Counted from the first letter of the stretch, positions 17,516-50,636 are shown. The stretch is DNA of 64,000 nt from Candidatus Lernaella stagnicola (GCA_030765525.1 JAVCCK010000020.1:177286-241285), one strand, 5' to 3'. Translations and numbers: made by a program. The notes: generated by a model not told the origin, from the letters alone.

Positions 17516-17663
17516 CGAATTATTTTTGTGTAATCACGTTATTTTGTGAGTGACTGCAGGGCGGCGCCGTAGTACACTTACGCCGATTGGGGTCTGGAAC
17601 TTCGGCTTCGAAACCCTGTGGGAGGGGATGCTTTCCGGCCGTGAAACACGGCGGGGAGGTTGC

Positions 17664-24819: not shown

Positions 24820-26022
24820 TCAGTTCTCGCGCAGAGTTTCGGCAACCCGTTGCGCCGCCCACTCGGCGCCGGCGGCCGTGAAATGCACGCTGTCGGCGAA
24901 TAGTTCACCGACCGGCTCCCCGGCCAGAAAGCGCTCGCGCAGCGCGGCGTCCAGATCGACCAACGGTATGATTTCGGCGGCGTGGCGGATCGCCTCGTTA
25001 GTAAGCGTTGTGGCGCGCAACGGAGCCGAATCAGCATCGCGGGCGCGAACAAACAATTCGTACGCTGCGGCGCGTCGACCGTTCGTGAACGAACGCACAG
25101 CCTCACGATAATCGGCGAGTGGCGGAGAGAGCGCGGCGGCGTCAAGAACGGGCAGCAAATCGGCCAGATGCGCTTCACGGTGTACTGCGGGGTTCGAGTC
25201 ACCGACCGGCGAACCGGCGGGGGGCGTAAACGGGTTGCTGATGACCGTGCAGAACACAACGCGGGCTCCCTCGCTTTCGAATGTGTGGCGGATGTTGCGT
25301 AGGTTGCGCTCAAACCGTTTGGCGACGGCGCGATTTTCAGTCTCGGTGGCGGGAGGGCCGCCGGGAGCGAAGGCGACACGATCCGGCCTGCCGCGAAGCC
25401 GCAAGATCCCTGAGCGCATCAACAAATACAAGCGGCTGTGGGAAAGCAGCGCACGGCCCTGCGTCAAGCGCGGATGGTCGGCGAAAGAGCCGTATAAACG
25501 CGCTCCGGTCCATTCGTTGTGGCCGGAATAGATGACGACAACGTCGGGCTTGGCGGCGCGAAGTTCGTCGGCGACCCACCGCAACTGCGTGGACGTGAAC
25601 CCGTTCGCGCCGAAGTTTAAAACACGCCGGCGCGTGGATGAGGCGGCGGCCAAGAGTTTCTCCAATTGCCGCGGGAAGCTTTGCGAAGCCTCGGCGCCGA
25701 CGCCGCGCACGGTGGACCCGCCCAGGCAGAGAACGCGGCGTTCATCGACGTCTTTTTCGATCGGGACGCTTTCGTCCGCGAAACGCTCCTGCATGAGCGG
25801 GTTGATGCGCCAACGGTCGGGGCGGCCGGCGTCGGGCGTAAGCAAGGGGATATCGCGGGCGTGGCTGTGCACGAGAATCAAATACTGTGACGGCGGCGTC
25901 AGGGGTACGAAGCGCGCGACCCCTTCGAGGGCGACAAGCAAAGCGAGCGTGACACCCAGGGCGAGGGCGGCGCGAAGCGGTGTCGATAGGGGCGAACGAA
26001 GCATGGTGGTCATCGTACTCAA
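24820..26022 (-). CDS. SGNH/GDSL-type hydrolase, signal-anchored
   Basis: N-terminal signal/TM; RVLCLGGSTVRG (GDS-like block I), VVVIYSGHNEW; approximate. Confidence 0.5.
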   Translation of the reverse strand: MSTMTTMLRSPLSTPLRAALALGVTLALLVALEGVARFVPLTPPSQYLILVHSHARDIPLLTPDAGRPDRWRINPLMQERFADESVPIEKDVDERRVLCLGGSTVRGVGAEASQSFPRQLEKLLAAASSTRRRVLNFGANGFTSTQLRWVADELRAAKPDVVVIYSGHNEWTGARLYGSFADHPRLTQGRALLSHSRLYLLMRSGILRLRGRPDRVAFAPGGPPATETENRAVAKRFERNLRNIRHTFESEGARVVFCTVISNPFTPPAGSPVGDSNPAVHREAHLADLLPVLDAAALSPPLADYREAVRSFTNGRRAAAYELFVRARDADSAPLRATTLTNEAIRHAAEIIPLVDLDAALRERFLAGEPVGELFADSVHFTAAGAEWAAQRVAETLREN

Positions 26023-26873: not shown

Positions 26874-28370
26874 TCAGGCTCGGCGTGCGTCTGGGTCCAT
26901 ATCGGCGGTAAGGCGCGGGTGGCGGGCGGCGGTGACTTCGTCCACCTTTTTGCACGTCGTGTTGTGCGGCGCGCTCTTAACGAGTTCCGGATGGCTTCCG
27001 GCTTCGGCGTGGATGTTCCGCATCGCCGTGATGAAACCGTCGAGCGATTCAGGCTCGAAGCTTTCGGTCGGCTCCACCATGATCGCGCCCTTGACCACCA
27101 GCGGGAAATAGACCGTCGGCGGATGAAAGCCGTAGTCGATCAAACGCTTGGCGACGTCCATCGTCGATACGTCGTTCGGCAGGCCCTTTTCGGCGAATAC
27201 GACTTCGTGCATGCACGGCGCCTCGTAGGCCACCGTGTACAAATCCTGCAGCCGCGCCCGTATGTAGTTGGCATTGAGCACCGCCATTTCGCTGGACGCC
27301 TTGAGCCCCGGCGCGCCGAGTTCGCGGATATAGGCATAGGCCCGCACGAGCACACCAACATTGCCCCACCAGGAACGAACACGCCCGATTGTCTGCGGGC
27401 GATCGTGATCCAGAGCGAAACCGCCATCGCGCTTAACGATGACCGGCGCAGGCAAAAACGGCGCCATATGCTTTTTAACCCCCACCGGCCCGGCGCCCGG
27501 ACCGCCGCCGCCGTGAGGTGTGCTGAAGGTTTTGTGCAAGTTGAAATGTAGCACGTCGATGCCGAAATCGCCCGGCCGCGTGATGCCCATGATGGCGTTC
27601 AGGTTTGCGCCGTCCATGTACACCAGGCCGCCTTGGTCGTGGACGATCTGGGCGATTTGCGCGATGTTCGATTCGAACAGTCCCAGCGTGTTGGGGTTGG
27701 TAATCATGATCGCCGCGACTTGGTCGTCCATGATTTCGGCGACCGCTTCGGGCGTCAGGATACCGGCCGCGCCCGATTTCAGTGGCACGACGTCGTAATT
27801 GCATATCGTGGCCGACGCCGGATTCGTCCCGTGCGCCGTGTCCGGAATGATGACCTTGGTTCGTTTTTGCCCCCGGGCTTCATGGTAGGCGCGGATGAGC
27901 ATCATGCCCGTCAATTCACCATGCGCGCCCGCTGCCGGCTGGCACGTGACCGCGTCCATGCCGGAAATCTCCGCCAGATGCTGTTCGAGGTTGAAGATCA
28001 ACTCCCAAAGGCCTTGGTGCTCGGCGGCCGGATGCGCGTCGGCGAAACCGGGCAGGCGGGCGAGGTCTTCGTTGATTTTCGGGTTGTACTTCATCGTGCA
28101 CGAGCCCAGCGGGTAGAGACCGCTGTCCAGACCGTAGTTGTACTGCGAGAGGCGCACGAAGTGACGAAACACTTCCACTTCGCTGACCTCCGGCCACGCG
28201 GCGGGCGTCAGGCGTTGCAGGTTCTCGGGTAGGGTCGCCGCTTCGGGTACATCGAGCGACGGCAGACTAAAGCCCTGACGGCCGGGCGTCGAGCGTTCGA
28301 AGAGCGTCGGCTCACACAGGGCCAGGCCCGTGCTGCCGGGCGTATCACAAGGACCGTACGATTTCGACAT
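26874..28370 (-). CDS. gcvPB: Glycine dehydrogenase (decarboxylating) subunit 2
   Basis: C-terminal half of P-protein, PLP fold. Start set at ATG 28370 (MSKSYGP...), which overlaps the gcvPA 3' end by 26 nt; no in-frame ATG/GTG/TTG lies closer to the conserved EPTLFERS N-terminus. Confidence 0.85.
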   Translation of the reverse strand: MSKSYGPCDTPGSTGLALCEPTLFERSTPGRQGFSLPSLDVPEAATLPENLQRLTPAAWPEVSEVEVFRHFVRLSQYNYGLDSGLYPLGSCTMKYNPKINEDLARLPGFADAHPAAEHQGLWELIFNLEQHLAEISGMDAVTCQPAAGAHGELTGMMLIRAYHEARGQKRTKVIIPDTAHGTNPASATICNYDVVPLKSGAAGILTPEAVAEIMDDQVAAIMITNPNTLGLFESNIAQIAQIVHDQGGLVYMDGANLNAIMGITRPGDFGIDVLHFNLHKTFSTPHGGGGPGAGPVGVKKHMAPFLPAPVIVKRDGGFALDHDRPQTIGRVRSWWGNVGVLVRAYAYIRELGAPGLKASSEMAVLNANYIRARLQDLYTVAYEAPCMHEVVFAEKGLPNDVSTMDVAKRLIDYGFHPPTVYFPLVVKGAIMVEPTESFEPESLDGFITAMRNIHAEAGSHPELVKSAPHNTTCKKVDEVTAARHPRLTADMDPDARRA

Positions 28371-29676
28371 AGCGGTCGATCTCCTCGCGGCTGTTGGCTT
28401 CGGTGACGCAGGTGAGGATGCCGTTTTCCAGCCCGGCGGCGAACCCGTCCAGGCCGATGCCGCCCAGAACGCCCGCTTCGCCCAGCGCGGCCAACACTTG
28501 ACCCGCGGGTTGTTTGGGCACCCAGACGAACTCATTGAAGGTCGGCGCGCTCAAAGGCACGTCGCCGATTTGCGCCAATTGGGCTTTCAGATATTCGGCC
28601 TTCGCGTGGTTTTGGTTCGCCACTTCCAGCAAGCCGGCGCGGCCTGTCAACGACATGTACACGGTGGCCGCCAGGGCCATCAGGCCGTGATTTGTGCAGA
28701 TGTTGCTGGTGGCTTTTTCGCGGCGGATGTGCTGCTCGCGAGTCGAGAGCGTCAGGCAGAAAGCGCGCTTGCCCTCGGCATCGACGGTCTGCCCGCAAAC
28801 CCGGCCCGGCATAGCCCGCACGTCACTTTTGTTGACCGCGAACAAGCCCAGGCCCGGCCCGCCGTAGGACATGGGAATTCCCAGCGACTGCCCCTCGCCG
28901 CAGGCGATGTCAGCGCCGGTTTGCCCGGGCGGCGCGATCAGCCCGAAGGCCAAAGGCTCGGTGAACGCGTGCACGAACTTCGCCTTCTTGCGGCCGTCGA
29001 GCAGCTTTTTGAACGCGGCGGCGTCTTCGATCGCGCCCAGGTAATTCGGCGACTGCAGTACGAGGCAGGCCACATCGTCGTCGATCAATGCCCGGGCGGC
29101 TTCCAAGTCGGTCGTGCCCGACGCGGCCAGGGGTGCGGCCACCAATTCCAGCGACGTCCATTTCGTATAGGTGCGCAGCGTCTCTAAGTATTGCGGGTGC
29201 AGCCCCGCCGAGACGACGACCTTCGTCTTGCGGCTTTGGCGTCCGGCCATGAGCACGGCTTCGGCCACGCCGGTCGCGCCGTCGTACATGCTGGCGTTGG
29301 AGATTTCCATGCCCAGCAGGCGCGCGATCATCGTCTGAAACTCGAACACCGCCTGCAACGTGCCTTGGCTGATTTCCGGCTGGTACGGCGTGTAGGCCGT
29401 GTAGAATTCGCTGCGTAGCAGCAAGTGGTTTATCGCCGCGGGTATCAAATGCCGATACGCGCCGCCGCCCGCGAAGCAGGGGCCGTGCGGACCTTTGTTG
29501 TTCAAGCCGCCCAGGTGATTGATCAGGGCGTTTTCGGGCAGCGGATCGGGCAGGCATAGTTCCCGGTCTAGGCGCAATTCCGGCGGAATCGAGCGAAACA
29601 GATCGGCCACGCTTTCTACGCCGATCGCCTCCAACAAGCGCTCGATATCGCCCGCGGTATGAGGGATGTAACGCAT
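28345..29676 (-). CDS. gcvPA: Glycine dehydrogenase (decarboxylating) subunit 1
   Basis: MRYIPHT...FYTAYTPYQPEISQG...SNASMYDGATG, N-terminal half of P-protein. Confidence 0.88.
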   Translation of the reverse strand: MRYIPHTAGDIERLLEAIGVESVADLFRSIPPELRLDRELCLPDPLPENALINHLGGLNNKGPHGPCFAGGGAYRHLIPAAINHLLLRSEFYTAYTPYQPEISQGTLQAVFEFQTMIARLLGMEISNASMYDGATGVAEAVLMAGRQSRKTKVVVSAGLHPQYLETLRTYTKWTSLELVAAPLAASGTTDLEAARALIDDDVACLVLQSPNYLGAIEDAAAFKKLLDGRKKAKFVHAFTEPLAFGLIAPPGQTGADIACGEGQSLGIPMSYGGPGLGLFAVNKSDVRAMPGRVCGQTVDAEGKRAFCLTLSTREQHIRREKATSNICTNHGLMALAATVYMSLTGRAGLLEVANQNHAKAEYLKAQLAQIGDVPLSAPTFNEFVWVPKQPAGQVLAALGEAGVLGGIGLDGFAAGLENGILTCVTEANSREEIDRYVEIVRSL

Positions 29677-34677: not shown

Positions 34678-35820
34678 ATGGATTGGCAGCTTAGCGACGA
34701 CCACCGCATGGTTGTGGATATGGTAAAAGATTTCGCGGCGAACGAACTCGCGCCGCAAGCGGCCGAGCTGGATCAAACCGGCCGTTTCCCCATGGAATCC
34801 TTCGTACATATGGCCGAGCTGGGCCTGATGGGCATGAACGCGCCGGAAGAATACGGCGGCAGCCCCATGGGCACGGTGGCGCTGTCGCTGGCGATCACCG
34901 AGGTGGCCAAAGCCTGCGCCTCGACCGCCGTCACGATGGCCGTGACCAACATGGTCGCCGAGCAGATCGACCTCTGGGGCACCGAGGCCCAAAAGAAGGC
35001 GTTTATTCCGCAAGTCGTCGGCGGTGGTCAGCCGATCGGCGCGTTTTGTCTTACCGAACCCGACGCGGGCAGCGACGCGGGAGCCGTGGCCACGACCGCC
35101 GTGCTCGACGGCAACCAGTGGGTGCTCAACGGCACGAAGACATTCATCAGCCACGGCGAATATGCCTCAGTCTATATTGTCTGGGCGAGGACCGGCGACC
35201 TGCCGCGCGCGTCCGGCTTGACGGCGTTTCTAATCGAGGGCGGCACGCCGGGCATAAAGGTGACGCGGCAGATCAAGAAAATGGGGCAGCATGGCTCCAA
35301 TACCGTCGAAATGGCGTTCGAGGACTGCCGCATTCCGAAAGACAACGTGTTGGGCGAAGTCAACGGCGGCTTTCGTATCGCGATGACCGGCCTGGACGGT
35401 GGGCGCATCAACGTGGCCAGCCAGGCGCTCGGCATCGGTTTGGCGGCGCTGGAGGCGAGCGTCGAATACGCGAAAGTGCGCGAACAGTTCGGCAAGCCGC
35501 TGGCCAAGATGCAGGCCATTCAATGGAAGATCGCTGACATGGCGACTTTGCTCGAGGCGGGGCGTCAATTGATTCTGCAAGCCGCGTGGCTCAAGGAGCA
35601 GGGCAAGCGCCACACCCGCCAGGCCGCGATGGCCAAGTACTTCGTCACCGATCGCCTGCAACAGATTGTGCGCGAGGCGGTGCAGATTCACGGCGGCTAC
35701 GGCTACACCAAGGAATACGTGGTCGAACGCCTCATGCGTGACGCGCGAATCACCACGATCTACGAGGGTACGAACGAGATTCAGCGCATCGTCATCGCTC
35801 GCGAGTTGCTTGCGGATTAA
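34678..35820 (+). CDS. Acyl-CoA dehydrogenase (paralog of 32758..33900)
   Basis: Roughly 70% identical by eye to the divergently oriented ACAD; same motifs; start at ATG 34678. Confidence 0.85.
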   Translation: MDWQLSDDHRMVVDMVKDFAANELAPQAAELDQTGRFPMESFVHMAELGLMGMNAPEEYGGSPMGTVALSLAITEVAKACASTAVTMAVTNMVAEQIDLWGTEAQKKAFIPQVVGGGQPIGAFCLTEPDAGSDAGAVATTAVLDGNQWVLNGTKTFISHGEYASVYIVWARTGDLPRASGLTAFLIEGGTPGIKVTRQIKKMGQHGSNTVEMAFEDCRIPKDNVLGEVNGGFRIAMTGLDGGRINVASQALGIGLAALEASVEYAKVREQFGKPLAKMQAIQWKIADMATLLEAGRQLILQAAWLKEQGKRHTRQAAMAKYFVTDRLQQIVREAVQIHGGYGYTKEYVVERLMRDARITTIYEGTNEIQRIVIARELLAD

Positions 35821-36143
35821 TTGGCCGGCGCGTTTTCCGATTCCAGTTCGTCCAGGAATGCCGCGTGCAGACCGCTCATGACGATATCCGTGAATGCCTC
35901 CAAAGACAGCATGGGGTGTGCGGCATAGAGGCCGACCTGAATTTCGGGGGCGATGTGCAGGAAGCAATCCTGGTCGCGACCCTCGGTGCAGGGGCAGTGA
36001 TCGGCCATCAAGATGCGGTGCATGGTATCGCGCCAGGCACGATACGTGATGAGGTCGGCCACGTCGCCGGTGGTGTTGAAGGCGATGCCTTGGGCTGCCA
36101 TTAAGGCGCCGTCCCGCAGAAGTTGAGTTTCTTCCTGTCGCAT
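35817..36143 (-). CDS. Small hypothetical protein, paralog A (conserved CxC...C/His)
   Basis: 108 aa; shares NTTG..ADLI..WR..HR.L...C.C..G....CFL...AF.D.VM.GL with the adjacent paralog. Confidence 0.5.
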   Translation of the reverse strand: MRQEETQLLRDGALMAAQGIAFNTTGDVADLITYRAWRDTMHRILMADHCPCTEGRDQDCFLHIAPEIQVGLYAAHPMLSLEAFTDIVMSGLHAAFLDELESENAPAN

Positions 36144-36262: not shown

Positions 36263-36583
36263 TTAATGATCGGCGGGAACGAACATTTCGAAGAGGCCCT
36301 CCATCACCATGTCATGAAAGGCTTGGAGCGCGAACAGGTCGTGATCGGCCAGGGCTTTTTGCTGCTCGGCCTCGGGCCAGCGGAGGAAACAATGCTCGGC
36401 GTCGCCCCGGACGCATGCGCAACCGTTGAGCTGAAGCACGCGGTGAATCGCCTCGCGCCACACGTCCAGCACGATCAGATCGGCCCGCGCGCCGGTGGTG
36501 TTGTGCACGATACGCCGTGCCGCTTCCAGCAAGGCATCGCGGAGAATCACGCTTTCTTCTTCGGTGATCGTCAGTGGGTTCAT
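36263..36583 (-). CDS. Small hypothetical protein, paralog B (conserved CxC...C/His)
   Basis: 106 aa; tandem paralog of 35817..36143. Confidence 0.5.
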   Translation of the reverse strand: MNPLTITEEESVILRDALLEAARRIVHNTTGARADLIVLDVWREAIHRVLQLNGCACVRGDAEHCFLRWPEAEQQKALADHDLFALQAFHDMVMEGLFEMFVPADH

Positions 36584-36632: not shown

Positions 36633-37418
36633 CTATTCGAGCGTTTCGTCGGTCAAGAAGCGTTCGGTAAAGTAGGCGTCGTCAATCTTCACATCCACTT
36701 CGTATTCTTCGAGCCTGAGTATGGTGGAGGCGCCCTTTAGCAGGTCGCTCATTTTCGTGTCTTTGGCGACCCAAGTGCCGTCGGAGCGCTTCTCCACGCC
36801 CGAGACTTCGAGCCGTTTCCAGAGCTTGCCCTTCTTATCGTAGAACTCGCCTTTGATGGGCAGGAAGTTGTCCTTGCGCACCCAGTAAACCAGTTTCGAG
36901 TAAATTTCGTCGTCGAGATTCTGCGGGACGGTCTCCACGACGTAGCAATCCTGGCCGTCGAGAACAGCATCGGCGAGGCGCTGATGGGCTCCTTGGTCCG
37001 GATCGTGGGTTTGCAGGTCGGCGTAGGCAAAGGTCGAGCCCATGAAATTGCCCGACTTATTCGATGACGTGATCCGCTTGACCTTCTTGAGCGCCGGCAG
37101 GAAGAGACGCTGATCGTCGTCGGCGTTTTTCTGCTCCACGATCAGGAACTTAGTGCCGCGCACATCCGGCGGGGCGAGGAAGGTCGTGACGGTGTGGCGC
37201 AAGCCGTTCTTTTCCTTGGTGCGCATTTTGATCTCGCGCACGCGCTCGCGGCCGTTTTTGTCGATGAGTATCATCTTGGCCGTCGTTTCGGCCGATTGGC
37301 TCTCGTTCTGTTTGGCCATCTTTTCCACGATCGCCTTGCCGTCGAGATCCGCCGCCGACACTACGGCCACCGCGATCACTAACGCCAATCCCACGCCGAG
37401 CAGTAAACGCAAACGCAT
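36633..37418 (-). CDS. Outer-membrane lipoprotein-sorting-protein-like (LolA-like) secreted protein
   Basis: Signal peptide from ATG 37418 (GGGAGGA RBS); composition and length fit the LolA-like family; assignment by resemblance only. Confidence 0.5.
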   Translation of the reverse strand: MRLRLLLGVGLALVIAVAVVSAADLDGKAIVEKMAKQNESQSAETTAKMILIDKNGRERVREIKMRTKEKNGLRHTVTTFLAPPDVRGTKFLIVEQKNADDDQRLFLPALKKVKRITSSNKSGNFMGSTFAYADLQTHDPDQGAHQRLADAVLDGQDCYVVETVPQNLDDEIYSKLVYWVRKDNFLPIKGEFYDKKGKLWKRLEVSGVEKRSDGTWVAKDTKMSDLLKGASTILRLEEYEVDVKIDDAYFTERFLTDETLE

Positions 37419-37539
37419 CAAGCTTCCTCCCGGTTTCATTATCGGCTGCATCTTGGCACGTCGGCCGCGTCGGCATCAACCCGCGTGCGCGAACCGGGCG
37501 GTCTTGCCTACCGGCTTCGGGCTGCTATCCTACTGCCCG

Positions 37540-38961
37540 ATGTGCAACCGTAGGTTTCTATTTATTCGCGTGGCGGCGGTGTTGCTTTTGGTGACGCTGG
37601 CGGTAGTGGTGTGTCTCGCGGCCTGCGACAAACGCGCCCGACTGCCGGACCGTAACGTCATTCTCGTCAGCATCGATTCCCTGCGTTTCGATCATGTGGG
37701 TTGTTACGGTTACCCCAAGCCGACCAGCCCGCGACTGGATGCGTGGGCGCGAAATGCGATGCGTTTTGAGTTCGCCTATGCCACGTCGCCCTGGACCCTG
37801 CCGAGCCACGCTTCGATGTTTACCGGCCTGTATACCGACGCCCACGGCGTGCGTTCCGCCAGGTCTAAGCTGAACGACGAATCCATGACGCTGGCGCGCG
37901 CTCTCTCGGACGCGGGCTATCGCACCGGCGGCGTGGTGTGTGCGCCGCTGCTCAAGAAAAAGTACGGTATGCACCAGGGCTTCGATTTCTACGACACCGA
38001 GTTGGTCGGCCGTAACGCCTTGGAGGCTCGCGTGGTGAAGGCGGGGCCTCGGGTGACCAACAAAGCGTTGGCGTGGCTGGACCGCAGCGGCGACAAGCCC
38101 TTCTTCCTCTTTTTGCACTATTGGGACGTTCACTACGATTACAATCCGCCCGCCAAGTACGCGGAGTTGTTCAACCCCGGGTACGAAGGCCCGGAGAACG
38201 GCGCGAGCATTCACGACCGCAAGGACATCACGCCGAAGATGGACAAGGCCGACTTTCGTCACCTCGTGGCGCTTTACGACGGCGAAATCCGCTTTACCGA
38301 CGACGCGCTCGGCGCGCTTTTCGACGGCCTGCGGGAACGCGGCCTGGACCGCAACACGGCGATCCTCATCGTCTCGGATCACGGCGAGGAATTCCTCGAC
38401 CACGGTTGGAAGGGCCATACGCGCACCTGCTACGAAGAAGTAGTGCGCATTCCTTTCCTGATCGAGGTCCCCTGGTTGGAAAAAGCGCGCGGCGTCAGTC
38501 AGGAGGCCGTGAGTCTCGTCGATATCTTTCCCACCGTGTTGGGATTGCTCGGCCGCCCGAAAGAAGGGCTGACGCTTCAGGGCGTCGATCTGAACCGGCT
38601 GCTCACCCACGGTACGCCGCCCGCGCCGCGCTCGTTGATGGCCGGTACGCAGCGGGGGCAGCCGGTACCCGAGGGCAAGGCGTACGAGTGGTCGACGCTG
38701 ATTGCGCGGGACCGGCAAAAGCTGCACGCCTTGAGCGGTCGCCGTTTCGACGAACAGTGGGTGTTCGATCTGCGAAACGACCCCGGTGAGAAAACGGACA
38801 TATCGGGTGGGAAGCCCGCCCTGACCGCAAAACTAGTGCAGGAGAATTCGCGGCGGCAAAGGTTGCACAAGCGATTACAGAAGGCGCTTAAAACCAGCGG
38901 CGAGTTTGAACTCGATGCCGAGTTGGCCGAAACGTTGAAGGGATTGGGGTATCTCAATTGA
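37540..38961 (+). CDS. Sulfatase-like hydrolase/transferase (alkaline phosphatase superfamily), lipoprotein
   Basis: VILVSIDSLRFDHVG...SPWTLPSHASMFTGLY...SDHGEEF; lipobox signal peptide from ATG 37540. Confidence 0.7.
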   Translation: MCNRRFLFIRVAAVLLLVTLAVVVCLAACDKRARLPDRNVILVSIDSLRFDHVGCYGYPKPTSPRLDAWARNAMRFEFAYATSPWTLPSHASMFTGLYTDAHGVRSARSKLNDESMTLARALSDAGYRTGGVVCAPLLKKKYGMHQGFDFYDTELVGRNALEARVVKAGPRVTNKALAWLDRSGDKPFFLFLHYWDVHYDYNPPAKYAELFNPGYEGPENGASIHDRKDITPKMDKADFRHLVALYDGEIRFTDDALGALFDGLRERGLDRNTAILIVSDHGEEFLDHGWKGHTRTCYEEVVRIPFLIEVPWLEKARGVSQEAVSLVDIFPTVLGLLGRPKEGLTLQGVDLNRLLTHGTPPAPRSLMAGTQRGQPVPEGKAYEWSTLIARDRQKLHALSGRRFDEQWVFDLRNDPGEKTDISGGKPALTAKLVQENSRRQRLHKRLQKALKTSGEFELDAELAETLKGLGYLN

Positions 38962-40391
38962 CCCGTTTCGGCCGGCTGGTATTGGTCGCGCTCGTCTTGA
39001 CCGTGGTGGCGTGTCAAAAATCGCCGCCGGTGAAGCAGACCGGCCAGAACATTCTGCTGATCAGCATCGATTCGCTGCGCGCCGACCACGTAGGTGCCTA
39101 TGGCTACGGCCCGCCGACGACCCCGGCTCTTGACGCCTTTGCGCAAACCGGCGCTGTGTTTACGCGATCCTACGCCAACAGCCCGTGGACGCTGCCCAGC
39201 CATGTGTCGATGCTGACCGGCTTGTATCCGGACACCCACCTGGCGGTGAGAAACGACAGCTACCTAAGCGACCGCGTCACCACTGCGGCCGAAGCGTTGG
39301 CGTCGGCCGGCTATGACACGCACGCAGTGGTTTGCGCGCCGTTTTTACGCAGCACCTACAACCTGGCCCAGGGTTTCAAAACCTACGACGAGGAAATTGC
39401 GCATACCAAGCGGCCCAACATTCGGCGAATCAAAACCAGCGAAACCGTGACCGACAAAGCCGTCGCCTATTTGAAAAAACGAGCGGGCAGCCCGGAGCCG
39501 TTCTTTCTTTTCGTTCACTACTGGGACGTTCACTACGATTACAATCCGCCGAAGAAATACGTCGAGATATTCGATCCGGACTACCAAGGCGATCTCGACG
39601 GTTTGAACATCAGCAAGCGCGACGATCTGAAGCGCGGGATGAACGAGCGCGACCGCCGGCACCTGCTGGCGCTTTACGACGGCGAAATCCGCCTCACCGA
39701 CGACCACCTGCGCCGCTTGCTCGCCTACCTGGACGAGACCGGGATGGCCGCCAACACGGCGATCCTCATCACCGCCGATCACGGCGAGGAATTCTTGGAG
39801 CACGGGACGGTCGGCCATACCTTCACGTGTTTCGAGGAACTGATTCGTGTGCCGTTGATCGCGCGGATACCGGGCGTGACGCGGCCCGGGCAGCGTATCG
39901 ACACGCCGGTGGAGAACGTCGATCTTTTCCCCACAATGCTGGCGGTCGCCGGCGCGAGCGTGGAAAAGAAAACACAGGGCCACAACCTATTACCCGTGAT
40001 TCGTGACGGCATCGAACTCGCCCGCGACCGAATCTTCTGCGAAACGCGCATGGGTCGGCGGTGGGGGTGGCGCAAGCCCAACGGCGTCTGGCGCAGCCTG
40101 TTGTTCGACGACGGCAAGAAGGTCCACAGCTTCAAAGAAAGCGGCAAGAAGACAGAATTCAACTTGTACGATATCGACGCGGATCCCGGCGAGACCGACG
40201 ACCTAGCGGCAGCGGAAAACGGTGGCGAATTGCTTTTGCCGCGGCGTCGCGAGCTATCGCAGACGCATCGCGCACACACGGGGTTGGCCGAGCGGCGCAA
40301 TATCAAGCCCGATAGCTGGCGCTATCGCCGGAAAACGAAAAACAACGAAGACCTCGATGAACAGCTTCGGGGTCTTGGATACGTGAATTGA
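38958..40391 (+). CDS. Sulfatase-like hydrolase/transferase, tandem paralog
   Basis: ILLISIDSLRADHVG...SPWTLPSHVSMLTGLY...ADHGEEF; TTG start overlapping the upstream stop (TTGA); shares identical ~29-nt stretches with the upstream paralog. Confidence 0.7.
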   Translation: MTRFGRLVLVALVLTVVACQKSPPVKQTGQNILLISIDSLRADHVGAYGYGPPTTPALDAFAQTGAVFTRSYANSPWTLPSHVSMLTGLYPDTHLAVRNDSYLSDRVTTAAEALASAGYDTHAVVCAPFLRSTYNLAQGFKTYDEEIAHTKRPNIRRIKTSETVTDKAVAYLKKRAGSPEPFFLFVHYWDVHYDYNPPKKYVEIFDPDYQGDLDGLNISKRDDLKRGMNERDRRHLLALYDGEIRLTDDHLRRLLAYLDETGMAANTAILITADHGEEFLEHGTVGHTFTCFEELIRVPLIARIPGVTRPGQRIDTPVENVDLFPTMLAVAGASVEKKTQGHNLLPVIRDGIELARDRIFCETRMGRRWGWRKPNGVWRSLLFDDGKKVHSFKESGKKTEFNLYDIDADPGETDDLAAAENGGELLLPRRRELSQTHRAHTGLAERRNIKPDSWRYRRKTKNNEDLDEQLRGLGYVN

Positions 40392-40407: not shown

Positions 40408-41700
40408 ATGAAAATCTCGCCTCGTTTTCGGGTTCTCCTGCGACGCTATGTACTCTTCCCCTTATTGCCGGTGGCGGCATTGGTGATCGTGCTCACGCTG
40501 GTGCTCGGCGGGCTGGAAAAAGCGGACGTAATCGACACCGAGCGGCCCGACGATCTCGTCGCTTACAAACCCATCAACTTCGCGCCGGTGAAGGAAGAAA
40601 ACGGGCGGAAGCTCGTGCGCATCGACGAACCCACGATGGTGCCGGAAACCTTCAGCCTCAAGCCCGAACCGGGTGTCATGCGCATTGTGGTAACCGGCGG
40701 CTCGTTCGCCATGGGTTGGCCCTATGCGGTGCAGGGGAGGGAGCGGCGCGGCGGCGACTTGCCCAGTTGGCTGGAAGTGCTGTTGAAGGCCGGTTGGCCG
40801 CAGCGCAAATTCGAGGTGATCAACGCCGCGGCGGGCGCGCAGAATTCCTTCCGCGTCAAGCACGTCGTGCATGCGGCACTGCAATGGTCGCCGGACGTGC
40901 TGGTGGTCATGGTCGGAAACAACGAGGGCTACGTACCGCCAACCTCGTGGAACGAGATTCTGCACGAGTGGACGTTCTATCGGGCCATGAAAAAGGCGCT
41001 CTTGCCCGACGTCGCGCCGGAGAAACGACCCATGTATCCGGCCATCGGCGTCGGCATGAAAACCATCCGCGCGCAGTTTCAACGGAACATGCGCGACATC
41101 GTGACGATGAGTCGCGACGCCCAAGTACCTATCGTAGTCGCCACGGTGCCGATCAACCTTCGCTACTTTCCGACCGCCGAGGAATATTTGCCGCCCGACA
41201 AACCGTGGTACGCCGAAGGCCGCCGTCTGCAAGAAAGCGGTCGGTACGAGGAGGCGATCCGGAAATACATCGGCGGAGACCTCCGGGGCTACGGCCTGCG
41301 GTTATCCGGACAATGTTACGAGGCGCTCGAACAATGGAATCGCGCTCGCGCGGCCTATCGAGCGGGCGTGGAGTATCTGCCGTTTTCCCAAACCAGGCCG
41401 TCGTTCAACGAGTTCGTGCGTGAGTTGGCGGACGATCTCGACCTTCCGTTGGTCGATTTGGAGCGCGACTTCGAAAAGCAATCGCCTCATGGCATCACCG
41501 GCGACCGCTGGTTCATCGACGGTTGCCACTTGGATTGGCGAGGGTACTACTTCACCGCCCGCCGCGTGCTGGCGGCTCTCGAAGTCGCCGATTTGGTGAC
41601 CGGTCGGCGCACCGGCGAACTGCCCGAGGCCGAAGACTACGCCGTCTCGCACGATTTGATCGACTACATGGAGACGACCCAGCCGGCGCGCCTGCCATAA
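40408..41700 (+). CDS. SGNH/GDSL-like hydrolase, membrane-anchored
   Basis: N-terminal TM; RIVVTGGSFAMG (block I-like), VVMVGNNE; approximate. Confidence 0.45.
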   Translation: MKISPRFRVLLRRYVLFPLLPVAALVIVLTLVLGGLEKADVIDTERPDDLVAYKPINFAPVKEENGRKLVRIDEPTMVPETFSLKPEPGVMRIVVTGGSFAMGWPYAVQGRERRGGDLPSWLEVLLKAGWPQRKFEVINAAAGAQNSFRVKHVVHAALQWSPDVLVVMVGNNEGYVPPTSWNEILHEWTFYRAMKKALLPDVAPEKRPMYPAIGVGMKTIRAQFQRNMRDIVTMSRDAQVPIVVATVPINLRYFPTAEEYLPPDKPWYAEGRRLQESGRYEEAIRKYIGGDLRGYGLRLSGQCYEALEQWNRARAAYRAGVEYLPFSQTRPSFNEFVRELADDLDLPLVDLERDFEKQSPHGITGDRWFIDGCHLDWRGYYFTARRVLAALEVADLVTGRRTGELPEAEDYAVSHDLIDYMETTQPARLP

Positions 41701-41703
41701 AAA

Positions 41704-41730
41704 AACCGGGCGGCGCCCGGCTTTCGTATT
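41704..41730. terminator. Bidirectional rho-independent terminator between convergent genes
   Basis: A6-CCGGGC-ggc-GCCCGG-CTTTCGTATT: 6-bp GC stem with 3-nt loop, U-tract on the minus transcript (after the fusion gene) and a U-rich stretch on the plus transcript. Confidence 0.5.
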
Positions 41731-41746: not shown

Positions 41747-44700
41747 TTATTTCTTTTTACGCAGGAAGCGGCCGAGGATCGTGATTTCGACCGGCATCGT
41801 GAGCCGCTGGCCGATTTTGACTTCGTCGGCTGCGATCGGCGGCCGGCCCTTCGGCGCCGGAATCACCTGCAAGGTCTTGCTTTTGGCATAACGCGCCTGC
41901 ACGAATGCCTGGCCGATCAACTTGCCTTCGCCGTCGGTGGCGCAACTGGTCACGTAGCCGATGCACGCGCCTTTGTCGTTGACGATCGGGTCGTCCGTTT
42001 TCAGCGGCCGGGTTCCCTTGGCGGAGACGCCGAAACGCACGACGGCGATTCCGCGCTTTTCCTTTTTCGCTAGGTAGGCCTTTTTGCCCACGAAAAACGG
42101 CTTGTGCAGTTTGACGAAACCGCCGAATCCGGCTTCGTTGGGCACGAGGTTGTGCGGGCCGGCCAGTTCGTGTCCGTACAGCGGCAAACCGGCTTCCATG
42201 CGCAGGCTGTCCCGCGCGCCGAGGCCGATCGGCATCACGCCGTGCTCCTTTCCGGCTTCCATGATCGCTTCCCAAAGCTGCGGCGCCTTGTCGGGATGCA
42301 CGAAAATCTCGAAGCAAGTCGGCTCGCCGGTATAACCCGTGCCGGAGATGATCGCGTCGAGGCCGTCCAACGTGGCGTACATGGTGCAGTTGTGCCCCAA
42401 GGCTTTCAGCGCCGGTTTGTCCGCTTCGGCCGCGAGTGCCAGCAAGATGTCGCGCGAACGCGGGCCTTGCAGCGCCAGGTCGACACGACGCTCGTCGCCC
42501 CATTGCGGGTCTTTCAGATTGCGCAGCACGCAAGGCTCGGGGAAGCAGCGTTGCGGCACCTGCGGATCGAGCAGCACCCGCCCTTCGTTGACCGCAACCA
42601 GCCACGCCCAATCCTTGTCTTCGTTGGCGGCGTTGACGACCAGCAGAATGCGGTCGGCCTGAACGTGGTAGACGAGCAGATCATCGAGCAAATCGCCGTC
42701 GTGATCGAACAGGTGCGAGTACTGCGCCTCGCCGACCTCCAAACCGCCGGCGTGATTGGCGCAAACCAGATCGACGAACTCCATCGCCCGCGGGCCGCTG
42801 GCCTCGAACACGCCCATGTGGCTGACGTCGAACAGCCCCGCCGCTTGCCGCACGGCGTTGTGTTCCTCGATGGTCGAGGTGTAACGCACCGGCATTTCGT
42901 ATCCGCCGAAGGGCACCATCACGCCGCCGAGTTTCTGGTGAATCTCAAACAGCGTGGTGCGCTTGTCTTCGCCTTCCGGCGCATTCCAGGAGAAGCGCGG
43001 CAAGTCCGGCTGGGGCAGGCGGTCGGCCAGCGCGCTTTGGCCCACAAAGAAAGGCCGCGCGACGTCCACATTCAACTCGGCGGCGTCTTTCCCGGCGAGG
43101 CTTTTATCGGTTTTCGGCAACAGGCTCAGCCAATCCTGAGCGAAGGTGCAATCCAACGGCATTTCGTCGATCACCACCGCGCCGGTGACTTTCGCCGAAG
43201 CATCCTGCGGATCGATCATCGTGAAGCCGTCGGCAAGACCGCGCAACCAGGCCAACAGGGGATCGGCGTTGTCCGGGTTTACTTTCACCACGAAACCGTT
43301 GCGGCGCGGATCATCGCTGAGCGGCAGCCGGGCCAGCGCGATTTCGTCCAGCACGTTGCCTTGATCGTCGAGCGCCAGGCTCGTCACCTTTTCGCCGTCG
43401 GCCAGGTGCGAAGGATCGGTGACCAGCGCCTCGCGCAGGAATTCGTCGGCTTCGGCGCCCGTCAACTTGACGATCACGGCCTCTTCGGAGTGGTCCAAAT
43501 ACGGATGGTGCGGATAGCCCGAAAGCGCCGGCGCATCCACACGCCAGGTGCGGGTTAACGCGTCAACTTCCTCGGACACTTCGCGCAGCACCTTCAAGTC
43601 GATCTTGCCGCGCGGCAGCACGCGGGTCATGCCGTCGTAATGCACGGGATGAATCGCGGTGATCACCCGGTGGATCAAGCGCGCGATGTGCTTGACGTCT
43701 TCCGCGTCGGCCCCGCGCTGCGTCACCCACGGCGTGCCGAGGCGCAGGCCCGTGGCCAGCGGCGTGGCGGTGTCGCCGGGGATGGTGTTTTTGTTGAGGA
43801 TGATGCCCGCCAGTTCCAGAATGTGCGCGGCCGGCTCGCCGTAAAGCAGCGGCGTTCCCCGGGGGGTGAGCGGTTTGAGGTCGATCAGCAGCTTGTGCGT
43901 ATCGGTGCCGCCGTAGGCGAGGCGAACGCCCAGCCGCTGGAATTCTTCGGCCATCACTTTCGCGTGGCCGGCGATGCGGTGCATGAGCTGCCGGAACGAG
44001 TCGGTCTGCGCCAGCTTGAACGCCACGGCCAGCGCGGCAATCGTGTTCATATGCGGGCCGCCTTGCTCGCCCGGGAAGACGCTGTTGTGGATCTTCGCCG
44101 CCAGCTTGCCGCTGCTGGTGAGGATCACCGCACCGCGCGGACCCATCAAGGTCTTGTGGGTCGTGAACGTCACTACATGGGCATGGTCGATCGGGTTCGG
44201 GTAATCCCCGGCCACGGTCAGACCCGCCGGGTGGGCGATGTCGGCCATCAGGTATGCGCCCACTTCGTCGGCAATGGCGCGGAACTTGGCGAAATCCGGC
44301 GCCCAGGGGTAGGACGTGTACCCGGCGATGATCATCTTCGGCCGATGTTCCTTGGCCAGCCTCATCACTTCGTCGTAATCGATCAGTTCGGTTTGCGGGT
44401 CCACGCCGTAGGGCACGATGTGGTAGTGCTTGCCGGTCATGTGGAAGGGGCTGCCGTGCGAGAGGTGCCCGCCCGCCATGAGGTCCAGGGCCATGACGGT
44501 GCCGCCGCGGGGCACCAGGGCTTCGTACACGGCGATGTTGGCCGGGGCGCCCGAGAGGGGCTGCACGTTGGCGTGGATTTTCGACGCCGGTGTCTTTTCG
44601 GTGGCGAAGCACTCGGCGGCGCGGGTGCGGCAGATCGATTCCACGAGGTTCACGTACGCGTTGCCCTTGTAAAAGCGGCGGTCGGCGTAGCGGCGGTAGC

Positions 44701-44962
44701 GCACGAGCCGGGTGGCGATGTCGGACAGGTTTTCCATCGGCATCAGCGTGTTTTCGCGCGCCGGGTAGCCTTCCGCGTAGAGGTTCGTGAAACACGTGTC
44801 GAGCATCCGGCGCACCGGCCAGGCGCAAATACTTTCCGAGGGAATCAGCACGATGTGCCGCGCCTGCCGCTCTTCCTCCCAGTGGAGCAGTTCGTTCATC
44901 AGGGAGTCGGCGTTCTGGATGTTTTCGTCGAAAAGGAAATCGATGATCGCTTCGTCGGACAT
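41747..44962 (-). CDS. Fusion protein: serine hydroxymethyltransferase (GlyA-like) N-terminal domain + glycine cleavage T-protein (aminomethyltransferase) C-terminal domain
   Basis: Single 1071-codon ORF. N-terminal AEGYP...ANVQPLSGAPAN...GGHLSHG...VVTFTTHKTLMGPRG (SHMT PLP-lysine motif). C-terminal FGGYEMPVRY...GLFDVSHMG...TGYTGE...GLGARDSLRMEAGLPLYG (GcvT). GAGGT RBS before ATG 44962. Confidence 0.8.
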   Translation of the reverse strand: MSDEAIIDFLFDENIQNADSLMNELLHWEEERQARHIVLIPSESICAWPVRRMLDTCFTNLYAEGYPARENTLMPMENLSDIATRLVRYRRYADRRFYKGNAYVNLVESICRTRAAECFATEKTPASKIHANVQPLSGAPANIAVYEALVPRGGTVMALDLMAGGHLSHGSPFHMTGKHYHIVPYGVDPQTELIDYDEVMRLAKEHRPKMIIAGYTSYPWAPDFAKFRAIADEVGAYLMADIAHPAGLTVAGDYPNPIDHAHVVTFTTHKTLMGPRGAVILTSSGKLAAKIHNSVFPGEQGGPHMNTIAALAVAFKLAQTDSFRQLMHRIAGHAKVMAEEFQRLGVRLAYGGTDTHKLLIDLKPLTPRGTPLLYGEPAAHILELAGIILNKNTIPGDTATPLATGLRLGTPWVTQRGADAEDVKHIARLIHRVITAIHPVHYDGMTRVLPRGKIDLKVLREVSEEVDALTRTWRVDAPALSGYPHHPYLDHSEEAVIVKLTGAEADEFLREALVTDPSHLADGEKVTSLALDDQGNVLDEIALARLPLSDDPRRNGFVVKVNPDNADPLLAWLRGLADGFTMIDPQDASAKVTGAVVIDEMPLDCTFAQDWLSLLPKTDKSLAGKDAAELNVDVARPFFVGQSALADRLPQPDLPRFSWNAPEGEDKRTTLFEIHQKLGGVMVPFGGYEMPVRYTSTIEEHNAVRQAAGLFDVSHMGVFEASGPRAMEFVDLVCANHAGGLEVGEAQYSHLFDHDGDLLDDLLVYHVQADRILLVVNAANEDKDWAWLVAVNEGRVLLDPQVPQRCFPEPCVLRNLKDPQWGDERRVDLALQGPRSRDILLALAAEADKPALKALGHNCTMYATLDGLDAIISGTGYTGEPTCFEIFVHPDKAPQLWEAIMEAGKEHGVMPIGLGARDSLRMEAGLPLYGHELAGPHNLVPNEAGFGGFVKLHKPFFVGKKAYLAKKEKRGIAVVRFGVSAKGTRPLKTDDPIVNDKGACIGYVTSCATDGEGKLIGQAFVQARYAKSKTLQVIPAPKGRPPIAADEVKIGQRLTMPVEITILGRFLRKKK

Positions 44963-48680: not shown

Positions 48681-49370
48681 GTGGCGGTCAATTTCGTAAC
48701 GGACGTGGACGACCTGGTGGCAATCAAGCGCGTGCTGGTGAGCGTGTCGGACAAATCCGGCCTCGGTATGCTGGTGTCCCGGATGATGGAAACCTGTCCG
48801 GATATCCATTTCTACTCCACCGGCGGCACGTACGCGCGGCTGGCCGAGATTCTCGGCGACCTGGCCGCGACGCACTTGACTCAGGTGTCGGACTATACCG
48901 GTCAGCCCGAAACCCAGGGCGGTTTGGTCAAGACGCTGGATTTCAAAATCTACCTCGGCTTACTTACCGAAACCTACAACGAATACCACCGCGCTGACCG
49001 CGAGCGGACCAGCGCCGTGCCGATCGACATGGTGATCGTCAACCTCTACCCCTTCAGCCGGACCGTGGCTCGCGACGACGCGACGATCGAGATGGCGCGG
49101 GCCAACATCGATATCGGCGGCCCCTGCATGGTGCGCGCCTCCGCCAAGAATTTCCTGCGCGTCACTTCGGTCGTGAACCCCGGCGACTATGGAGTTTTGT
49201 TGGAGCAGTTGCGCACGCAGGAAGGCAAGCTCAATCTGCAACAACGTTATGACTACGCCCGCCGGGCCTTTGCCCACACCGCGGCCTACGATACGGCGAT
49301 TTCCGAATACCTGGCGGCCCACGACCCGTCGGTTGTCCCGGCCGTCTACACGCTCCACGAGCAAGACTGA
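48681..49370 (+). CDS. purH: IMP cyclohydrolase domain protein (PurH N-terminal domain as a separate ORF)
   Basis: RVLVSVSDKSGL...YSTGGTYARL...QVSDYTGQPE...MVIVNLYPF...IDIGGPCMVRASAKN matches the PurH IMPCH domain; ends with TGA 12 nt before the next ORF. Confidence 0.8.
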   Translation: MAVNFVTDVDDLVAIKRVLVSVSDKSGLGMLVSRMMETCPDIHFYSTGGTYARLAEILGDLAATHLTQVSDYTGQPETQGGLVKTLDFKIYLGLLTETYNEYHRADRERTSAVPIDMVIVNLYPFSRTVARDDATIEMARANIDIGGPCMVRASAKNFLRVTSVVNPGDYGVLLEQLRTQEGKLNLQQRYDYARRAFAHTAAYDTAISEYLAAHDPSVVPAVYTLHEQD

Positions 49371-49382
49371 GAGGAACGCGAC

Positions 49383-50636
49383 ATGGCCGACTTGAAGAAG
49401 ATGTATCGCACCATCGTCGGCGATCACTTCGCGCCGCGCATGGAAATTTCGTTTATCGATGCCGGCGGCGAGCGCACGACACTCAGTTATGAAAAGGTGA
49501 CGTGGACCATCGATGAGGAAGAAAAGGGCCTGCGTTACGGCGAGAATCCGGGACAGGAAGCCGCGCTCTACAAGCTGGTGGGCGGTAATCTTGCCATCGG
49601 CGAGGTCGAATTGATTCGGCCCGGCGCGGGCTTGGTGACCGGGGCGGACATGGTCAAATTCGGTAAGCACCCCGGCAAGATCAACCTCACCGATGCCGAC
49701 AATGCGCTGAATATCTTGCGCTTCCTCACCGAAAAGCCCGCCGCGGCGATCATGAAGCACAACAATCCGTCGGGCGTGGCTCAGGCGGAGTCCCTTGTCG
49801 AGGCGTACCTCAAAGCCGATCTGGCCGACCATGTTGCCGCCTTCGGCGGTTGCATCGCACTCAACCGCCCCGTCGACATCGACACTGCCACCGCGATTTC
49901 CGAGCGCTACGCCGAAGTCGTGATCGCGCCGGAATTCGAAGAAGGCGCCGTCGATATTCTGGCCGGGCGCAAGAACCTGCGCATCATGAAAATTGCCAAC
50001 ATCGAACGCCTGCAGAGTTACGCCGCCGAGCGCTTCCTCGACCTAAAATCCCTCGTCGACGGCGGCATCATCGCCCAGCTTTCCTACCTGCCGGTGCTTG
50101 GCCGGGACGCGCTGCAAATCGCCGAGACGACCTACAAGGGCGAGACGCATCGTGTCGAGCGTGAGCCGACCGAGGCCGAAATCAAAGACATGCTTTTCGG
50201 CTGGATCGTCGAGGCGGGCGTGACGTCCAACTCGGTGATTTACGTCAAGGACGGCGTCACCGTCGGCATCGGCACCGGCGAGCAAGACCGTGTCGGCGTG
50301 GCGCGTATCGCCCGCGACAAGGCTTACCGCAAGCTGAGCGAACGGTACGCTTTTGAACGCCACGAGCAGTCGCTTGATCTGCTGGCGGAAAAGGATCCCG
50401 ACGCCGCGGCGGCCATCGAGGCGGAAGTCACGCAGCAGCGCGGCGGCCTGCCGGGCAGCGTCATGGTTTCCGACGCCTTCTTCCCCTTCCGCGACGGCAT
50501 CGACGTCGGCCTGGGGGAGGGCGTGAAGGCGGTCATTCAGCCGGGCGGCTCGATCAAGGACTACCAATCGATTCAAGCCTGCAACGAAAACGGCGCAACG
50601 ATGGTCTTTACCGGCCAGCGCTCGTTCAGGCACTAG
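49383..50636 (+). CDS. purH: AICAR transformylase domain protein (PurH C-terminal domain as a separate ORF)
   Basis: LRYGENPGQEAALY...KHNNPSGVA...AFGGCIALN...VIAPEF...DAFFPFRDGIDV...VIQPGGSIKD...MVFTGQRSFRH matches the PurH AICARFT domain. Confidence 0.8.
   Translation: MADLKKMYRTIVGDHFAPRMEISFIDAGGERTTLSYEKVTWTIDEEEKGLRYGENPGQEAALYKLVGGNLAIGEVELIRPGAGLVTGADMVKFGKHPGKINLTDADNALNILRFLTEKPAAAIMKHNNPSGVAQAESLVEAYLKADLADHVAAFGGCIALNRPVDIDTATAISERYAEVVIAPEFEEGAVDILAGRKNLRIMKIANIERLQSYAAERFLDLKSLVDGGIIAQLSYLPVLGRDALQIAETTYKGETHRVEREPTEAEIKDMLFGWIVEAGVTSNSVIYVKDGVTVGIGTGEQDRVGVARIARDKAYRKLSERYAFERHEQSLDLLAEKDPDAAAAIEAEVTQQRGGLPGSVMVSDAFFPFRDGIDVGLGEGVKAVIQPGGSIKDYQSIQACNENGATMVFTGQRSFRH

Follow-up and report, generated by a model that had tools for sequence, protein, structure and literature searches.

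Two adjacent genes of Candidatus Lernaella stagnicola, known from a metagenome-assembled genome (MAG) of the phylum Ca. Lernaellota, are annotated as sulfatases, and the question is whether they encode sulfatases at all. We analyzed a 64,000-nucleotide stretch of this MAG (GCA_030765525.1, JAVCCK010000020.1:177286-241285), referred to here as the window; positions are counted from its first nucleotide. Gene 1 (copy 1; 37540..38961, plus strand; NCBI MDP8223613.1) starts with ATG and encodes 473 residues. It was delimited by its open reading frame (ORF), its match to PF00884 and an AlphaFold2 model. Gene 2 (copy 2; 38958..40391, plus strand; NCBI MDP8223614.1) is its paralog, starts with TTG and encodes 477 residues. 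NCBI names both products sulfatase; "sulfatase" and "arylsulfatase A-like enzyme" are the names that NCBI and JGI give to such genes. Based on the observations below, we consider both products to be probably Thr-nucleophile phosphoryl-transfer enzymes of the alkaline phosphatase superfamily, not sulfatases.

The original prediction had pointed to the motif SPWTLPSH(A/V)SM(F/L)TG in both proteins, with Thr at the position of the catalytic formylglycine (fGly) and His at that of the conserved Arg, and this was confirmed. In gene 1 the motif SPWTLPSHASMFTG is located at 37786..37827, where Thr86 (37795-37797) takes the place of fGly and His90 that of Arg. The gene 2 motif lies at 39180-39221, with Thr78 (39189-39191) and His82 in the same places. 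The protein and a 52-sequence family profile were aligned with HMMER to the structures 4upi, 4upl and 7stt, and W-T-L-P-S-H aligned with x-fGly-x-P-S/T-R. A displaced Cys/Ser-x-P-x-R motif, which would have contradicted the prediction, was looked for as well, and a full-length scan with [CS]-x-[PA]-x-R revealed none anywhere in either protein. Thus genes 1 and 2 lack the convertible Cys or Ser of the fGly-sulfatase signature. Thr cannot give rise to fGly, since its oxidation would yield a ketone (SulfAtlas, PMC5066984).

The residues that bind sulfate were examined next to the nucleophile. In the profile alignment to 7stt, G-K-W-H is replaced by C-A-P-L/F with loss of Lys113 and His115 (PAS numbering), and the insert bearing the second sulfate-binding Lys (Lys375, PAS) is deleted. 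Arg55 is changed to His in the family of genes 1 and 2. Both products therefore lack the Lys/His pair and the second Lys of S1 sulfatases. Retained are His198 (PAS His211), the only conserved sulfatase His that is kept, and the metal ligands Asp46 and Asp280-His281. In comparison with S1 sulfatases and phosphonate monoester hydrolases (PMHs; SpAS1 4upi, SpAS2 4upl, the Pedobacter enzyme 7stt and RlPMH 2vqr), the window proteins also have additional invariant residues, namely His193, Asp196, His288 and His293, and a C-terminal LxxLGY motif.

It is extremely unlikely that the products are true sulfatases as annotated, with Thr or some other residue serving in an unusual manner. Sulfatases do account for all the best matches in Pfam, NCBIfam and the PDB and by fold, and His198 and the D...DH ligands are common to sulfatases and PMHs. 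However, the fGly position is never Cys, and Ser only once, in the 164 homologous domains described below, and the Arg, both Lys and one His of the sulfate site are gone. The NCBIfam scores are also far under the cut-offs. The products are thus almost certainly not sulfatases. The original prediction of a phosphoryl-transfer enzyme in place of a formylglycine sulfatase is supported by the loss of the sulfate-binding set together with the EptA-type residues described below, but alkyl transfer, which it had named as an alternative, found no support.

The fold itself is that of a sulfatase. The products match PF00884 (Sulfatase) with E values of 5e-52 (gene 1) and 9e-51 (gene 2); Phosphodiest (PF01663, about 4e-15) and SGSH_C, the C-terminal subdomain of sulfatases, are matched less strongly by both. 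AlphaFold2, run with the family alignment, gave a model of the gene 1 product with a mean pLDDT of 94 and a pTM of 0.91. The model has the two-domain alpha/beta sulfatase fold with the metal-binding Asp...Asp-(Asn/His) residues; helix 86-95 begins with Thr86, and the core strands carry the metal ligands at their ends. Fold comparison by class resulted in figures of 31-42 for S1 sulfatases and PMHs, 35 for the uncharacterized VP1736, 33.5 for YejM, 30-33 for LtaP/LtaS, 26-29 for EptC/EptA/MCR-1 and about 25 for PafA/NPP. Neither product reached the curated cut-off of any named NCBIfam sulfatase model (arylsulfatase, 139-145 bits vs 481; choline sulfatase, 87-115 vs 433; PehA, 111-136 vs 900). 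The LtaS score was 23-27 bits vs a cut-off of 970, and sequence matches to LtaS/LtaP, OpgB, GacH and BcsG were likewise weak. EfAS, an Mn-dependent arylsulfatase found as an NCBIfam match, was considered as a model and rejected, because it uses Cys61/fGly.

Within this scaffold, the active site resembles that of phospho-head-group transferases. The gene 1 product was aligned to E. coli EptA with hhalign (79% probability, 264 columns). Asp46 aligned with the Glu of GETSR, Thr86 with the catalytic Thr, His193 and His198 with LHxxGxH, Asp280 and His281 with the DH of DHGE, and His293 with the His of LHG. We take the residue numbering of MCR-1 to carry over to E. coli EptA by the identity of these motifs. 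In gene 1, H193-Y-W-D196-V-H198 is encoded at 38116..38133 and its H-x4-H pattern aligns with LHxxGxH, the region of MCR-1 His395; the HYWDVH of gene 2 is at 39516-39533. The segment DHGEEFLDHGWKGH of gene 1 (38377..38418) contains the predicted metal ligands Asp280 and His281 and, 13 residues after Asp280, His293. Its counterpart in gene 2 is DHGEEFLEHGTVGH (39777-39818), and all invariant residues of copy 1 are present in copy 2 too. The spacings are identical to those of the transferases, both for H-x4-H and for the 13 residues from Asp to His (DHGE-x9-H; MCR-1 Asp465...His478). In MCR-1, Zn1 is bound by Glu246, Thr285, Asp465 and His466, and Zn2 by His395 and His478 (PMC5175174). The window proteins share with EptA, LptA, MCR-1 and EptC the Thr at the N-terminus of the same helix, the acidic residue after beta-1 and the D-H pair. 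His198 and His293 correspond to the second-site residues His395 and His478 of MCR-1. Inside a sulfatase scaffold, the site thus resembles the Thr-nucleophile, His-rich metal sites of phospho-transferases. Globally, the proteins are nearest to fGly sulfatases and PMHs, whose C-terminal subdomain they keep, yet they carry what looks like a transferase-type site.

From the observed fold, motif replacement, conservation, location signals and gene arrangement we infer a mechanism, including the identity of the metals, the phospho-Thr chemistry, the class of substrate and the choice between hydrolysis and transfer. The two products would be membrane-tethered periplasmic metalloenzymes with an S1 sulfatase fold and a different catalytic apparatus, in which Thr86 (Thr78 in copy 2) replaces fGly as the nucleophile. 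A first metal would be held by Asp46, Thr86, Asp280 and His281 and a second by His198 and His293, with His90, His193, Asp196 and His288 as further invariant residues of the site. The metal-activated Thr would attack a phosphate ester, most likely a phosphodiester with an alcohol head group, and a covalent phospho-Thr intermediate may form. Water could resolve this intermediate, as in a phosphodiesterase, or else a hydroxyl or amine of an acceptor, as in a head-group transferase. The two paralogs probably act together at the membrane surface, either as a heteromer or in consecutive steps. Their targets may be envelope lipids or phosphodiester-decorated glycans, and two neighbouring gene products described below, a membrane-anchored SGNH acyl-hydrolase and a divergent LolA-like carrier, would likely take part. 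The lipid anchor, the LolA-like neighbour, the SGNH partner and relatives with five transmembrane (TM) helices are circumstantial indications of membrane lipids or envelope glycans as the substrate.

The Thr motif had been presented as a feature of this locus, but it turned out to be the signature of a very large clade. In the 52-sequence alignment (37-67% identity), Asp46, Thr86, His90, His193, Asp196, His198, Asp280, His281, Glu284, His288 and His293 are invariant or nearly so. The best 120 matches in an index of 5.8 billion proteins all contain W-T-L/S-P-x-H or Q. We then used the best 150 clusters of a phmmer search against 1.84 billion 50%-identity representatives, all with E <=1e-75. Position 86 in the 164 alignable domains of these clusters is Thr in 163 cases, Ser in one and Cys in none. 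Asp46 is conserved in 160, His198 in 164, Asp280 in 162, His281 in 164 and His293 in 160 of the 164 domains; the count for His288 is within 160-164, and His193 and Asp196 are found in 158 and 156. Such counts indicate strong purifying selection on the predicted active-site residues. It is very unlikely that the proteins are non-catalytic binding or regulatory modules that keep the fold for ligand binding, like the periplasmic domain of YejM/PbgA/LapC. The near invariance of nine putative catalytic residues in hundreds of divergent sequences and in both paralogs would be unexpected for a pseudo-enzyme.

A pattern scan of GTDB species representatives revealed at least 587 loci of this type. They are mostly in MAGs of Planctomycetota, Acidobacteriota, Myxococcota, Eisenbacteria, Binatia, Aminicenantes, other groups and candidate phyla. 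The architectures of the clade vary and include lipoprotein or secreted forms of about 450-500 residues and forms of about 650 residues, in which 4-6 (about five) N-terminal TM helices take the place of the lipobox Cys. Roughly a quarter to a third of the related clusters have 4-6 TM helices. The longer forms thus share the layout of LtaS and EptA, which the window proteins do not. In about 13 of the 150 cluster representatives, two catalytic domains are joined in one polypeptide. Natural fusions of two, and at times apparently of more, Thr-type domains were observed in P0124-P0136, P0142, P0157, P0179, P0206 and P0226; these proteins have 900-1550 residues and most contain both catalytic sets. 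By Rosetta-stone logic, such fusions hint at cooperation between paired domains. PF00884 is known to include Thr-type non-sulfatases such as LtaS, EptA and OpgB, which causes misannotation (SulfAtlas, PMC5066984). Our literature search found no description of this clade, a sulfatase-like, uncharacterized subfamily with what appears to be a transferase-type site.

Both products are predicted to be extracytoplasmic lipoproteins, each carrying a signal peptide with a lipobox of the form [LVI][ASTVI][GAS]C at its end. The gene 1 lipobox, LAAC (37615..37626, plus strand), contains the predicted lipid-attachment residue Cys29, with Asp at +2; that of gene 2 is VVAC (39003-39014) with Cys19. Cys29 is kept in at least 90% of the 52 aligned homologs, and a lipobox-like motif was detected in 70 of 110 short-form homologs. 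With EptA, LptA, MCR-1 and EptC the proteins share an extracytoplasmic, membrane-tethered location, but a signal peptide and lipobox take the place of the N-terminal multi-TM lipid-donor domain. The start of gene 1 is ambiguous. Besides the ATG at 37540, which is favoured by the N-termini of homologs, there are a TTG at 37453 (NCBI, 502 residues) and a GTG at 37570 (JGI, 463 residues), and no Shine-Dalgarno (SD)-like sequence was found ahead of any of these three candidates.

The start of gene 2 is clearer. As had been predicted, its TTG start codon overlaps the TGA stop codon of gene 1, in the sequence TTGA at 38958..38961 (plus strand). The same junction reads TTGA, ATGA or GTGA in four related loci from other genomes (TTGA in L092, ATGA in L090 and L001, GTGA in L003). 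At their extreme C-termini, both window proteins (38935-38958 and 40365-40388) and 85 of 120 homologs have the conserved motif L-[KR]-x-L-G-Y-[ILV]-x. Its codons in gene 1 (AAGGGATTGGGGTAT) double as an SD-like stretch for gene 2: the G-rich GGGATTGGGG is located 9-18 nucleotides upstream of the gene 2 start, within the conserved KGLGY codons. Since the overlap is kept in relatives and is preceded by this SD-like stretch, both the TTG start and translational coupling of the two genes are well supported.

The pair had further been proposed to derive from a recent duplication or from gene conversion, on the grounds of identical stretches of about 29 nucleotides in the two copies. The identity is real. 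A stretch of 29 nucleotides occurs at 38122..38150 and again at 39522-39550 (plus strand), encodes W-D-V-H-Y-D-Y-N-P-(P), and corresponds to the family-invariant peptide WDVHYDYNPP. The duplication is not recent. The two proteins share 44% of their residues and the genes 53-54% of their nucleotides, and each copy is nearer to its ortholog elsewhere (59-66% nucleotide identity) than to its neighbour. Pairs of copy 1 and copy 2 were found on at least eight other contigs and are kept in at least five other genomes; four of these have the pair with the 4-nucleotide overlap, and in L091 the copies are adjacent without overlapping. Because the copies are nearer to their cross-genome orthologs and the pair recurs on these contigs, the duplication appears to be old and to precede the divergence of at least six genomes.

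The identical stretch did not prove to be a sign of gene conversion either. In a codon-usage simulation, a run of at least 29 nucleotides had P = 0.03, and four runs of at least 18 nucleotides occurred in 0 of 2000 replicates. As a control, copy 1 was compared with copy 2 of foreign genomes, where conversion is impossible. These comparisons gave runs of up to 32 nucleotides, with runs of at least 29 nucleotides in 3 of 30 and of at least 26 nucleotides in 6 of 30. Identical runs of at least 15 nucleotides sum to 92 nucleotides in the window pair, which was exceeded by 3 of the 30 controls. Counts of site patterns revealed no clear local excess of sites shared by the paralogs. Conversion is not needed as an explanation, because the cross-genome control gives runs that are as long; the conserved peptide and a strong codon bias in G+C content at third positions would suffice. 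Some rare synonymous codons are common to the window copies and mostly absent from the orthologs in L001, L003 and L092 (GTT, GAT and AAT, as well as CTT and GAA in ALYDGEIR). Copy 2 of L092 shares GAT...AAT, which would fit a tract copied from copy 2 into copy 1. A short conversion tract in the window pair is thus possible.

We also analyzed the surroundings of the pair. The third gene of the apparent operon starts 16 nucleotides after gene 2 (40408..41700, plus strand; MDP8223615.1, "hypothetical protein") and encodes an SGNH protein of 430 residues. It has an N-terminal TM helix, an SGNH/GDSL hydrolase domain (PF13472, 9e-11) and a TPR (TPR_2); the catalytic-block motifs of the hydrolase domain are GGS at residue 97, GAQNS at 143 and DGCH at 371. 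A homolog at the same position was found in L001 only. Behind it come a GC-rich hairpin with T-rich tail (41706..41730, plus strand), a terminator-like end to the three-gene unit, and then a convergent gene. The hairpin is terminator-like as a consensus match only, and such sites are no more numerous in the region than expected from shuffling.

Upstream, a gene on the minus strand (36633..37451) diverges from gene 1 and encodes a periplasmic protein similar to LolA and TP_0789 (272 residues, signal peptide; PF17131 1.6e-58, DUF1329). A LolA-like gene is divergent from the sulfatase-like pair in L001, L003, L090 and L091 as well, so that the arrangement is found in 5/5 informative loci. A scan of the 88-bp divergent intergenic region detected no sigma-70-like promoter, the consensus being uninformative for this phylum. 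In the related loci, the LolA-like gene is followed by a gene for a protein of 494-563 residues without Pfam match (L001, 5408-7003; L003, 4891-6381; L090, 4614-6098; L091, 2925-4616; all on the minus strand). The protein was read in L001 and L003, where it starts with a signal peptide and ends in ...RYGF. A probable outer-membrane beta-barrel, it may be DUF1302-like. At this place the window contains two small tandem genes (35817-36143 and 36263-36583, minus strand) with coding-like G+C content at all three codon positions. Their products of 108 and 106 residues are 42% identical and share C-x-C ... D-x-x-[HD]-C-F; neither Pfam nor NCBIfam gave a match, and none of the other loci analyzed contained a homolog. 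NCBIfam gave no names for the neighbour genes, and homologs of the LolA-like, SGNH and outer-membrane proteins were not found beyond the closest relatives.

In more distant loci, the paralogs are often clustered, with at least two copies within about 8 kb in 35 of 85 loci. Locus L086 (1-15956) contains, in this order, genes for a Phosphodiest protein (701 residues), a sulfatase-like protein (622), a second Phosphodiest protein (551), GT4 and GT2 glycosyltransferases and a 5-TM Thr-type enzyme (651). They are followed by PMT_2, UDP-glucose dehydrogenase, GT4, two GT2 genes and an epimerase, an arrangement that resembles glycan biosynthesis. In L004 the divergent neighbour is a GT-C-like, Agl23-like membrane protein.

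Several points weigh against reading the two products as phosphoryl-transfer enzymes of the envelope. With NCBIfam models, fGly sulfatases and PMHs are far closer overall than EptA or LtaS (arylsulfatase 139 bits vs EptA/CptA <=36). The EptA-like site is deduced from one hhalign comparison of 79% probability and from the spacing of motifs, and the geometry of the metal site is taken from alignment. Solved structures include none from the Thr clade; the nearest, a true sulfatase, shows 24-28% identity. Of 6 related loci only 2 contain the SGNH gene, and the window lacks the LolA-like gene's outer-membrane partner. Clustering of ORFs over 80 distant loci revealed no conserved neighbour, with crude ORF calls in high-GC DNA that produced antisense shadow ORFs. 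This lack of conserved neighbours agrees more with scavenging hydrolases than with an envelope pathway of their own.

Scavenging periplasmic phosphodiesterases or phosphomonoesterases, which free phosphate or head groups from organophosphates in the environment, are a tenable though somewhat doubtful alternative. They would be a sub-case of the phosphoryl-transfer enzymes favoured here, with the second step fixed as hydrolysis, and would have no transferase role and no specific link to the LolA-like or SGNH genes. Glycerophosphodiesters, phospholipids, teichoic-acid-like polymers or nucleic acids would be the substrates. In line with this, the family has expanded, often to several copies, in Planctomycetota, Acidobacteriota, Myxococcota and similar phyla, and the absence of a shared neighbour is the pattern of nutrient-acquisition sulfatases and phosphatases. 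The short forms also lack the TM domain with which EptA and LtaS bind their lipid donor. The products further resemble NPP phosphodiesterases, with their secondary match to PF01663 and their Thr-x-Pro-x-His motif. The NPP nucleophile motif is T-F-P-N-H, which resembles T-L-P-S-H, and bacterial NPP forms are secreted or periplasmic. Scavenging accounts less well for the LolA-like/outer-membrane module kept beside the pair in the closest relatives, and for the 5-TM forms inside a glycan biosynthesis cluster; nor was a Pho-regulon signal noticed, no search aimed at it having been made.

It is almost equally tenable, though likewise somewhat doubtful, that the products are phospho-head-group transferases like EptA, LtaS, OpgB, BcsG or GacH, which would move phosphoethanolamine, phosphoglycerol or phosphocholine from a phospholipid to an envelope lipid or glycan. 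Such a role would agree with the EptA-type metal and His motifs and their spacing, with the 5-TM domain of some family members, with the L086 member among GT2, GT4, PMT_2 and UDP-glucose dehydrogenase genes, and with the Agl23-like neighbour in L004. The membrane-anchored SGNH partner recalls the DltD-type partners in teichoic-acid modification. However, the window proteins are only lipid-anchored and have no TM domain to extract a lipid donor. The pair is located among housekeeping genes and the window offers no glycan-synthesis context; in addition, the extra C-terminal sulfatase-type subdomain is without counterpart in the known transferases.

A more far-reaching version of the phosphoryl-transfer proposal is speculative, and we consider it improbable as a whole. 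The W-T-L-P-[SA]-H proteins would then be a distinct, widespread family that arose from the sulfatase scaffold by an exchange of fGly for Thr and in which an EptA-like two-metal site was rebuilt. The coupled or fused pair would be a heteromeric phospho-head-group hydrolase or transferase that, with the LolA-like carrier and its outer-membrane partner, imports and dismantles or remodels envelope phospholipids. If true, uncultured diderm phyla would contain a periplasmic lipid-processing module that has not been described before.

The rest of the window contains housekeeping genes (FeoB, MetRS, GltX, glycine cleavage, acyl-CoA dehydrogenases). An ORF of 1071 residues at 41747-44962 (minus strand) combines serine hydroxymethyltransferase (PF00464, residues 92-430) and glycine-cleavage T-protein (PF01571, 672-938) domains; it is 70% identical in L001, and glycine-cleavage P subunits are encoded at 26874-29676 (minus strand). 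A second membrane-anchored GDSL/SGNH paralog (24820-26022, minus strand; 400 residues) is 24% identical to the SGNH protein encoded after gene 2 and adjoins a diacylglycerol-kinase-like gene (23706-24719). The purH gene (AICARFT/IMPCHase) appears to be divided into two adjacent ORFs on the plus strand. The first (48681-49370) covers the MGS domain and the first 67 profile positions and the second (49383-50636) the rest, which could reflect either a gene that is truly split or a frameshift in the assembly. A protein of 1172 residues with malectin, CotH-kinase and lamin-tail domains is encoded at 17550-21068 (plus strand).

For the organism, the findings bear on its proposed lifestyle. The paper describing it counted 14 sulfatases, and the use of sulfated polysaccharides was inferred (PMC9324843). 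At least five of these 14 are of the Thr type, namely genes 1 and 2, P0023, P0025 and P0040. Sulfatase counts as a proxy for the degradation of sulfated glycans may be inflated in "sulfatase-rich" phyla more generally, because the Thr clade, which spans 150 or more clusters at 50% identity and no fewer than 587 GTDB loci, is mostly found in those phyla. A sulfatase/PMH scaffold with Thr and what looks like a His-rich site of the transferase or NPP type would be a bridge for the evolution of nucleophile and metal use in the alkaline phosphatase superfamily. With its conserved paired and sometimes fused architecture and its lipid-carrier-like neighbour, the clade is a tractable target for the discovery of function.

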